A stretch of DNA of 64,000 nucleotides, from sequence record NC_054914.1; one strand, given 5' to 3'. Position numbers and translations under genes: made by a program. This stretch comes from Escherichia phage vB_EcoM-fFiEco06. The notes below the pieces were generated by a model. That model saw nothing but the letters and a program-made list of their open reading frames with translations, was not told the DNA's origin and searched no databases. Shown piece by piece: positions 15,888 to 17,227 of this stretch; within the stretch, counting starts at the first letter, position 1, and each line of letters begins with the position of its first letter.

Positions 15888-16667
15888 TTAATTAAAAATA
15901 TATACTTCATCAGTTCCATTCTTTTCTTTGGAATGATATATGTTAAAGACGTATTTTTTATTAAGATGCTTAACATTATATTTTTTAGACCATTCTTTAA
16001 GAAGAGTGTTTTCCTTTCCGTGATGCTCTAAAACATTCGACAGTCCAAATTTTATTCCTCTGTCATTTAAAGAATCTAAAAGATTTAAAAGGTCTTTTTC
16101 TTCTTCTTCTGACCAAAATTTATTATAATCAGCAACTGTTATAAGATATGGAGGGTCCACATATACAAAATCGCCGTCTAGAATTTTGACATCTTTAAAA
16201 TGCAATGAACTAAAGATTATTTTATCACAATTTTGTTTAAAGTGATTAAAGCGTTTTTCACTATTTTTGTTTATAGTTCTTTTTCCAAACGGAGTAGTAA
16301 AATTTCCTTTATCGTTTATACGAATCATATTACTAAACCCGTGAAAATGAAGAACATAAAGTAAAAGAGGATCTCTAGTTTTATTATAATCTTCACGTAA
16401 TTTCAAAAACTCTTCTTTTGATGTTTTTGATAGTTTATATTGCTTTATTACTTTTAATACGTCATCCCATGATACATTAATAAGACGCTTATACATTTCA
16501 ATAATTGGTTCTTGAATATCATTGGCCAATACAGGACCATTGACGTTCAAAGACACTGATAAACCTCCACAAAATAAATCCACGAATCTGTCATATTTTG
16601 GAAAATGAGGCTTAAGTTCAGGTAATAATGACTGTTTATTACCTGTATACGCGATAGCTCCTAGCAT
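15888..16667 (-). CDS. dam: DNA adenine methyltransferase (GATC N6-adenine)
   Basis: 259 aa; DPPY catalytic motif and FCGG AdoMet motif. Confidence 0.85.
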
Positions 16668-17227
16668 TATATTCTCTCATTTATTGCAGCAAAAAACGAA
16701 TTATATAATTCTTCATCATATGTATTTGATAGTAATACTAACACGTTTTGTGATTTAGCATATTCATTAAACCTTGCTTGGATGGTTGGATTATCAGTAA
16801 ATGATTCTCTTTTTGTCCATTTATTACGTGGATAATATCCGCATGGCAAAAAATCTAATATCATCAATGACACAGGGTTTTCAGTTTTTGTGTATTCTTT
16901 TAATTTCTCTTTATCTTCTAAATATATTCCAACCGAATCAATAGCTGTACCTCCACCAACTTGGTGTTTAATTTCAATTATATGCTTTTTACCGTTGCGA
17001 GAAATAACAATATCAAATCTTCTAGTACGCTTCTTAGTTATAAAATTAGAACAAAACAAATTATTTGATTTTTCAGTATCATCGGTTAAAACCATTTTTT
17101 CTTGATAACTAACTGAACAATCAGTGAAATATTCTTTTACTTTATTAAGTATGAAATTTTCAACTACGGCAGATATTTTATATGAATCTCCGTTTAAAGC
17201 CATTTCATGCACAATTTTATTAATCAT
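16667..17227 (-). CDS. hypothetical protein with PD-(D/E)xK-like motif
   Basis: 186 aa; FDIVI ... IEIK spacing typical of PD-(D/E)xK nucleases; TAATG overlap with dam start. Confidence 0.55.

Follow-up and report, generated by a model that had tools for sequence, protein, structure and literature searches.

The stretch analysed here (the window) comprises 64,000 nucleotides of Escherichia phage vB_EcoM-fFiEco06 (NC_054914.1), and the subject of this report is a pair of minus-strand genes within it: dam, whose product matches the Pfam MethyltransfD12 profile (E = 6.5e-51), and the open reading frame (ORF) directly upstream of it, which we call R. The genes are read on the minus strand in the order gene 61, R, dam and gene 56, with a plus-strand ORF lying convergently between gene 61 and R, and this region is 100% identical to that of the Tequatrovirus Escherichia phage vB_EcoM-fHoEco02. 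R corresponds to HE2_030 in MG781191 and belongs to phrog_8706, which is listed as function unknown in PHROG. A preliminary description of this DNA, made from the letters alone, had drawn attention to a TAATG overlap of the 186-aa ORF with dam, to an early promoter ahead of it and to a motif with the spacing of the PD-(D/E)xK nuclease core, and had suggested that the two genes could form a restriction-modification-like or methylation-directed nuclease module. The overlap is borne out by the ORF coordinates and the sequence: R and dam share base 16667, and the junction is read as ...ATATAATGCTAGG, in which the TAA stop of R runs into the ATG of dam. The evidence described below suggests that the ‘orphan’ Dam of phage T4 is the surviving half of a phage-borne restriction-modification (R-M) module, the other half of which would be R.

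The sequence of R contains FDIVI at residues 71-75 and IEIK at residues 84-87, which places D72 and E85 13 residues apart and yields the D72...E85-x-K87 arrangement to which the preliminary description had pointed. These residues belong to a set (E23, D72, E85, K87, H88, Q89, G93-S98 and D125) that is invariant in eight homologues, down to 32% identity. An AlphaFold2 model of R built on six homologues is confident, with a predicted local distance difference test score (pLDDT) of 80.3 and a predicted template modelling score (pTM) of 0.79, and it shows the alpha-beta-beta-beta-alpha-beta core of the PD-(D/E)XK superfamily; in the model, E23 is positioned on helix 1, D72 on strand 2 (residues 67-77), and E85 and K87 on strand 3 (residues 80-88). 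The motif is more than a chance occurrence, as its residues, besides being invariant, fall in this confident model on the helix and strands where they would be looked for. When the model was compared with the PDB using Foldseek, PD-(D/E)XK nucleases only were retrieved, with orthodox type II enzymes as the best matches, and an independent BFVD model of the homologue from MX01 matches at a template modelling (TM) score of 0.92. The profile and structure search that had been proposed as a check thus predicts a PD-(D/E)XK fold for the 186-aa protein, and the claim of a nuclease fold is supported by the confident model, the Foldseek matches and the invariant catalytic residues. The protein is made up of a single catalytic domain and contains no winged-helix or SRA methyl-reader domain. 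Among closely related alleles, the ratio of nonsynonymous to synonymous substitution rates (dN/dS) is 0.03-0.12 for R and 0-0.05 for dam, and these low values argue that R is a working gene and not debris.

Table 1. Features of the R-dam locus in the window
Feature	Position	Strand	Remarks
gene 61 (primase)	17524..18552	minus	
66-aa hydrophobic ORF	17327..17527	plus	conserved; phrog_2024 (function unknown)
whole cassette (promoter, R and dam)	15848..17315	minus	present or absent as a unit among Tequatroviruses
segment absent from T4	16755..17294	minus	flanked by 8-nt direct repeats ATCACAAA
T4-early-type promoter of R	17253..17282	minus	GTTTAC -35, TGgTATTAT extended -10; consensus scan and lineage conservation
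inverted repeat TTCTCAGC...GCTGAGGA	17235..17275	minus	z = -2.3; encloses the -10 element
R gene, 186 aa	16667..17227	minus	predicted PD-(D/E)XK restriction-endonuclease fold; candidate catalytic residues E23, D72, E85, K87
segment absent from KarlGJung (Bas37)	16866..17221	minus	deletion between GATGATAT repeats
dam, 259 aa, D12-class N6-adenine (GATC) methyltransferase	15888..16667	minus	start overlaps the R stop

R occurs in a narrow range of genomes and, wherever its flank can be read, in the company of a methylase. An exhaustive profile search of 1.84 billion representative proteins returned 11 matches to the R family at E <= 1e-3, among which are one spurious repeat protein and two chimeric or partial sequences. 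A second, word-indexed search with the extended alignment found no further relatives of R, no R homologue was present in 185,579 prokaryotic species genomes (one genome each), and pattern scans of IMG/VR and of metagenomes contributed only 4 extra loci. All readable R contexts are those of T4-like phages, and a D12-class methylase gene (M) is located directly downstream of every R homologue with a readable flank, including the most distant ones, P0011 (33% identity) and P0014 (32%). The R-dam pair occupies at least three genomic positions: in Tequatrovirus and Dhakavirus it is flanked by genes 61 and 56, in Klebsiella Jiaodaviruses by denB and ndd, and in the metagenomic locus L005 it is found upstream of a gene that we take to be rIIA-like, judging by eye against T4 rIIA. 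The pairwise identities of R and M co-vary (Spearman 0.69), with R diverging faster, as is usual in R-M systems. The cassette has a G+C content of 27.5% (27.6% for R and 28.6% for dam), as compared to 34.3% for the window and 34-39% for the flanking genes, and the low value shared by the two genes suggests that they were acquired together.

The allelic states of the locus were surveyed in 718 phage records that match the 56-61 region. R and dam occur together in about 147 of these, T2 included (the R-specific segment was found in 145 records, R together with dam in 147), and about 35 records have dam only, along with a scar of R. Many records have neither gene, and most related phages lack dam; in the cassette-less AR1-type phages about 40 unrelated bp replace window positions 15848..17315. 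R without dam was encountered at none of the loci examined in the 718 records, at the identity level of the survey, and of the sequenced relatives with a T4-type dam, about four fifths retain an intact cassette. T4 itself keeps R codons 159-186 (the last 28) directly 5’ of dam, with ~540 bp missing; the missing segment is bounded by ATCACAAA repeats at 17295..17302 and 16747..16754, and T4-type remnants are found in other phages too. KarlGJung (Bas37) carries a separate 356-nt deletion that keeps dam and leaves of R a 61-aa fragment without the catalytic residues, such that two independent microhomology deletions have removed R while sparing dam. In T2, a 1-nt deletion in a T-run alters the last residues of R and uncouples it from dam, and the T4 scar shares this T-run variant, which indicates that an allele resembling that of T2 was the one that suffered the T4 deletion. 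An insertion of the ORF in the window phage was considered and rejected, as T4 and Bas37 carry deletion scars of R. Just 5’ of the cassette promoter, positions 17283..17302 (minus strand) of the window hold a 9-nt tandem duplication, CACAAATTT/CATAAATTT, that is absent from T2; one of its copies provides the ATCACAAA repeat at the T4 deletion junction.

Comparative genomics thus strongly supports the link to Dam envisaged in the preliminary description: the two genes are kept together, diverge in step and change position jointly, and their decay is asymmetric. That M persists alone and R never does, and that the pair moves and diverges together, constitutes the toxin/antidote-like signature of a type II R-M system. 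GenBank entry M22342 (M22342.1; T2 dam, 1988) contains the entire R ORF at bases ~83-640, split in two frames near codon 38 relative to modern T2 genomes. The split probably reflects an error in the sequencing and may be why the ORF went unrecognized. Miner and Hattman, to whom this entry is due, reportedly described in 1988 a 536-bp insertion, left unexplained, that T2 has 5’ of dam and T4 does not.

The arrangement of the junction and of the upstream region was compared among lineages. The TAATG overlap is not universal, as R of other lineages either abuts dam or overlaps it by 1 to 35 nt; T2 is an exception in that R, after the 1-nt deletion in its T-run, ends 13 nt before dam. Upstream of R, a consensus scan locates a promoter-like match, TTTACT-17-TATTAT with a TG extension, at 17281..17253. 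The scan overall is not above chance (18 sites versus 16.7 expected), although a GTTTAC / TGnTAnnAT promoter is positioned 5’ of R in all seven of the diverged lineages that could be read, also where the pair sits at other genome positions; its conservation across diverged lineages amounts to a phylogenetic footprint even if the scan alone is at chance level. The early promoter that had been claimed ahead of the ORF is therefore found, and its architecture is kept in seven diverged lineages. The inverted repeat at the promoter has its 5’ arm in the promoter spacer and its 3’ arm over the Shine-Dalgarno sequence of R, which is covered in this manner in the window, MX01 and the Jiaodaviruses. 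Analogous hairpins are located 5’ of R in five further loci, in which the arms differ and the architecture is kept; their z-scores are -1.6 (L010), -3.7 (L013), +0.1 (L014), -5.1 (L005) and -4.5 (L015), as compared to -2.3 in the window. In the T4 genes e, soc and I-TevI, the ribosome-binding site is masked in read-through transcripts, and translation occurs only from transcripts that start inside the hairpin. The cassette hairpin resembles this T4 device, and it is probably a means of masking the ribosome-binding site of R in read-through transcripts.

Sequence searches relate R only distantly to known nucleases. The Pfam DpnII profile (PF04556) matches window R with an E value of 0.0045 and 16.8 bits, under its 23-bit gathering threshold, and it matches four of the eight family members, the best at E = 8.3e-5. 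Of the profile positions 1-278, only 152-235 align to the 186-aa R, whereas genuine DpnII covers positions 1-277. The PADLOC REase_II model also gives a sub-threshold value (9e-5), and hhalign against 14 DpnII-family proteins yields a probability of 38% (P = 3.3e-4) across 34 columns only, which hold the RFDxVI...IE core. Membership of R in the DpnII family is not established, as the Pfam match falls below threshold, R is shorter than DpnII and only the catalytic core aligns, in which R has E-x-K. By sequence, neither the R protein nor its family profile retrieved any PDB chain, even at E values up to 10, and comparison with NCBIfam gave noise only. Assignment to the EcoRI family by sequence was rejected (hhalign probability 0.4%), and the resemblance of EIKHQ in R to EAKHQ in EcoRI remains a motif-level lead; MunI is similar to R in its small size, but the MunI/EcoRI branch recognizes AATT-containing sites, while the partner methylase of R recognizes GATC. 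Placement in the MutH/Sau3AI family was likewise tried, and specific structural or sequence similarity to MutH was not found.

Known gene systems resemble the phage cassette in some respects and depart from it in others. DpnII, MboI and LlaDCHI likewise have a D12 GATC methylase beside a small PD-(D/E)XK endonuclease gene, they show a weak sequence likeness to R at the catalytic core (RFDxVI...IE), and in them, as in the phage cassette, M survives loss of R. However, R is 186 aa long as compared to ~288 aa for DpnII and is without the N-terminal ~150 residues of the latter; the phage genes are ordered R then M under a T4 early promoter, unlike the DpnII-type systems; and the carrier is a virulent phage with hydroxymethylcytosine (hmC) DNA instead of a bacterium. 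The free-standing seg/mob genes of T-even phages (segF among them) are, like R, nuclease genes that occur optionally amid the conserved genes of this region, being present in some T-evens and absent from others, and for both a role in the competition of co-infecting relatives is plausible. Assignment of R to this class of stand-alone GIY-YIG or HNH enzymes was nonetheless rejected, as its predicted fold is PD-(D/E)XK, it is always paired with the methylase, and the pair is found at several genome positions. From its sequence relationships and modeled fold, R is best described as a phage-restricted, new family of putative type II-like endonucleases partnered with Dam.

The Dam of the window matches T2 Dam at every residue, and six substitutions (P20S, D26N, R139Q, F140Y, E188D and L209Q) separate it from the Dam of T4 (NC_000866). 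Miner and Hattman (1988) are said to have found T2 Dam to be a more thorough and active methylase than T4 Dam, and it is conceivable that T4 Dam has been under relaxed pressure on methylation efficiency after the loss of R. No other 4-bp palindrome is nearly as depleted in the window as GATC, of which 65 sites are observed and 210 expected from trinucleotide frequencies (observed/expected 0.31); the next lowest is TCGA, at 0.62, and the R gene itself contains no GATC. An older explanation of GATC depletion in enterobacteriophages is MutH (Deschavanne & Radman 1991, cited in PMC4471564). The glucosylated hmC DNA of T4 is incompletely methylated at GATC, and the role of Dam methylation in T-even phages has been described as unknown (PMC4471564). 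The Durham phages Geo, EL and BGP, which carry the R-dam cassette, form a modification group of their own with hmC, alpha-glucosyl and gentiobiosyl residues at ~1:2:2, and the cassette-less Tequatroviruses of the same study have about one third hmC and two thirds gentiobiosyl (PMC13390438). A link between the cassette and the glucosylation pattern is possible, although it may merely mirror phylogeny.

We assign a probability of roughly 55% to the reading that R works as a PD-(D/E)XK endonuclease of the type II restriction kind, that with Dam it makes up a self-contained R-M-like cassette with a promoter of its own, and that T4-like phages acquired the two genes as a unit. In such a cassette, the promoter would drive a bicistronic R-dam transcript early in infection, Dam would methylate the GATC sites of the phage DNA, and the nuclease would cut at or near GATC sites without Dam methylation. 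The cassette is probably GATC-directed, the specificity and methylation sensitivity of the nuclease being read from its partner methylase. The DpnII-like matches, the hhalign alignment with DpnII proteins and the depletion of GATC lend this specificity weak support. Likely targets would be the genomes of incoming dam-less relatives, under-methylated phages or plasmids, and DNA in Dam-poor hosts. Dam would serve as the antidote, such that R could not be maintained without Dam while Dam could outlive the loss of R, and T4, with its dam behind the deletion scar of R, would exemplify the end state. Because most related phages are without dam, the most attractive target may be a relative of this kind that co-infects or superinfects with an unmethylated genome, or else foreign DNA that is under-methylated for other reasons, although this choice of target is speculation. 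A precedent is provided by the chlorovirus PBCV-1, which encodes a GATC R-M pair, M.CviAI with A579L (PMC7248222); R.CviAI/M.CviAI (A579L/A581R) is like the phage cassette in combining an early-expressed viral N6-methyladenine methylase for GATC with an endonuclease (PMC7248222). PBCV-1, however, infects a eukaryotic alga, the DNA of which lacks GATC methylation and so forms an obvious target, whereas the host of the phage is Dam-plus.

A wider proposal is more tentative, and we regard it as possible but doubtful. It holds that the T-even Dam is the antidote half of a GATC restriction weapon used between phages, with which R-bearers such as T2 and the window phage would cut the unmethylated GATC sites of superinfecting or co-infecting dam-less relatives or other foreign DNA. 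The cassette would be spread or held as a selfish R-M element, T4 Dam would be its relic, and the weapon would have contributed to the depletion of GATC and to the thoroughness of T2 Dam.

Several points weigh against the R-M reading. R is still only a putative nuclease. Its natural substrate is where the model is weakest, since the DNA of enterobacterial hosts already carries Dam methylation and that of the phage contains glucosyl-hmC. If R-bearing phages are also under-methylated, like T4, then hmC must block R, which would weaken the need for Dam. Moreover, R is the first of the two genes in the operon, and no mechanism that would delay its expression is apparent. The likeness to DpnII is sub-threshold and limited to the core, in which DpnII has E-x-N where R has E-x-K, and because this likeness is weak the proposed GATC specificity rests on the partner methylase. 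GATC depletion is consistent with that specificity, but we rejected it as proof, given the MutH alternative. Finally, the T2 allele, with a frameshifted C-terminus and no overlap with dam, may be impaired.

Four other explanations of R were weighed, and the best placed of them, though unlikely, turns the methylation preference around. R could be a DpnI-like, methylation-dependent nuclease (type IIM/IV) that cuts the Dam-methylated cytosine DNA of the host and aids host breakdown, with glucosyl-hmC sparing the phage. This would agree with the early expression of R, with the Dam methylation of host DNA and with the fact that T-even phages do degrade host DNA, and the fold alone is silent on which methylation state is cut. 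However, R has only its catalytic domain and no winged-helix or SRA reader, and it is strictly tied to the phage Dam even though the host supplies methylation; dam, for its part, is often found without R. In addition, the phage Dam would create targets for such an enzyme on phage DNA with unglucosylated hmC.

Less likely still is that R is a selfish homing-type endonuclease, which would cut cassette-less relatives at a long non-GATC site and spread by repair in the manner of seg/mob genes, with Dam merely linked to it. The clean presence/absence polymorphism in an intergenic hot spot beside segF territory is what a homing gene would produce, but the nuclease moves to other positions with Dam, to which it is tightly juxtaposed, T4 and Bas37 show deletion of R and not absence of an insertion, and among known structures the model fits orthodox type II enzymes best. 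We rank below this a MutH-like nickase acting on the unmethylated strand at hemimethylated GATC sites, with a role in strand discrimination, recombination or replication initiation, which we think improbable. Linkage to a GATC methylase, a small PD-(D/E)XK protein of about the size of MutH and the adjoining oriA (in T4, within gene 56) would all fit this role, yet no MutS or MutL partners are known in R-bearing phages, and the asymmetric decay of the pair fits toxin/antidote logic better. It is very improbable that R is catalytically inert, be it as a decaying pseudogene or as a DNA-binding protein that assists or regulates Dam, for example by controlling its specificity or expression, for although the nuclease is only predicted and T2 has a frameshifted C-terminus, all canonical catalytic residues are kept without change in homologues of about 30-60% identity, purifying selection is strong and the gene is intact in 145 records.

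The neighbourhood of genes 56 to 61 is a hot spot of optional nuclease genes. In T4, soc and gene 56 are separated by the homing endonuclease gene segF, whereas the window has no gene at this place (15241..15308), and a homing endonuclease is annotated in the same region of some relatives, e.g. IME537 and WL-3. The 66-aa ORF located between gene 61 and R bears the name dam.1 in the T4T annotation but is missing from that of NC_000866. It shares 4 nt at its 3’ end with the 3’ end of the convergent gene 61, and it is kept with or without the R-dam cassette (AR1, T4).

R has been noticed earlier at the annotation level only. One GenBank record labels it ‘putative DpnII restriction endonuclease’, and a 2026 paper mentions, in one sentence, that the Dam-like gene of Geo, EL and BGP is accompanied by ‘a restriction enzyme-like gene’ (PMC13390438). 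Beyond that one passing mention, the literature searches returned no functional study of R and no characterized partner of a T-even Dam. The absence of a characterized function, as given in the preliminary description, agrees with what we found: no characterized homologue was identified, T4 has only the 28-codon remnant, and the full-length T2 copy is unstudied. Nor does the literature searched assign an unrelated role to any T-even homologue.

A concrete origin of the T-even dam emerges from these results: it appears to be the surviving half of a two-gene R-M cassette, and the carriers of the cassette include the classic model phage T2. The R-M reading predicts that R would be toxic in dam-minus cells and that deletion of dam would be lethal in R-bearing phages. 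Should the nuclease prove inactive, its gene would still explain the puzzle of 1988, namely the “insert” of roughly 540 bp that precedes dam in T2. With an active nuclease, the cassette carriers would represent a rare case of a virulent, hypermodified bacteriophage with its own type II restriction system, and R would represent a new restriction-enzyme family, probably GATC-specific. An active nuclease would also be a candidate mechanism of exclusion between related phages, which would be relevant to the design of phage cocktails.
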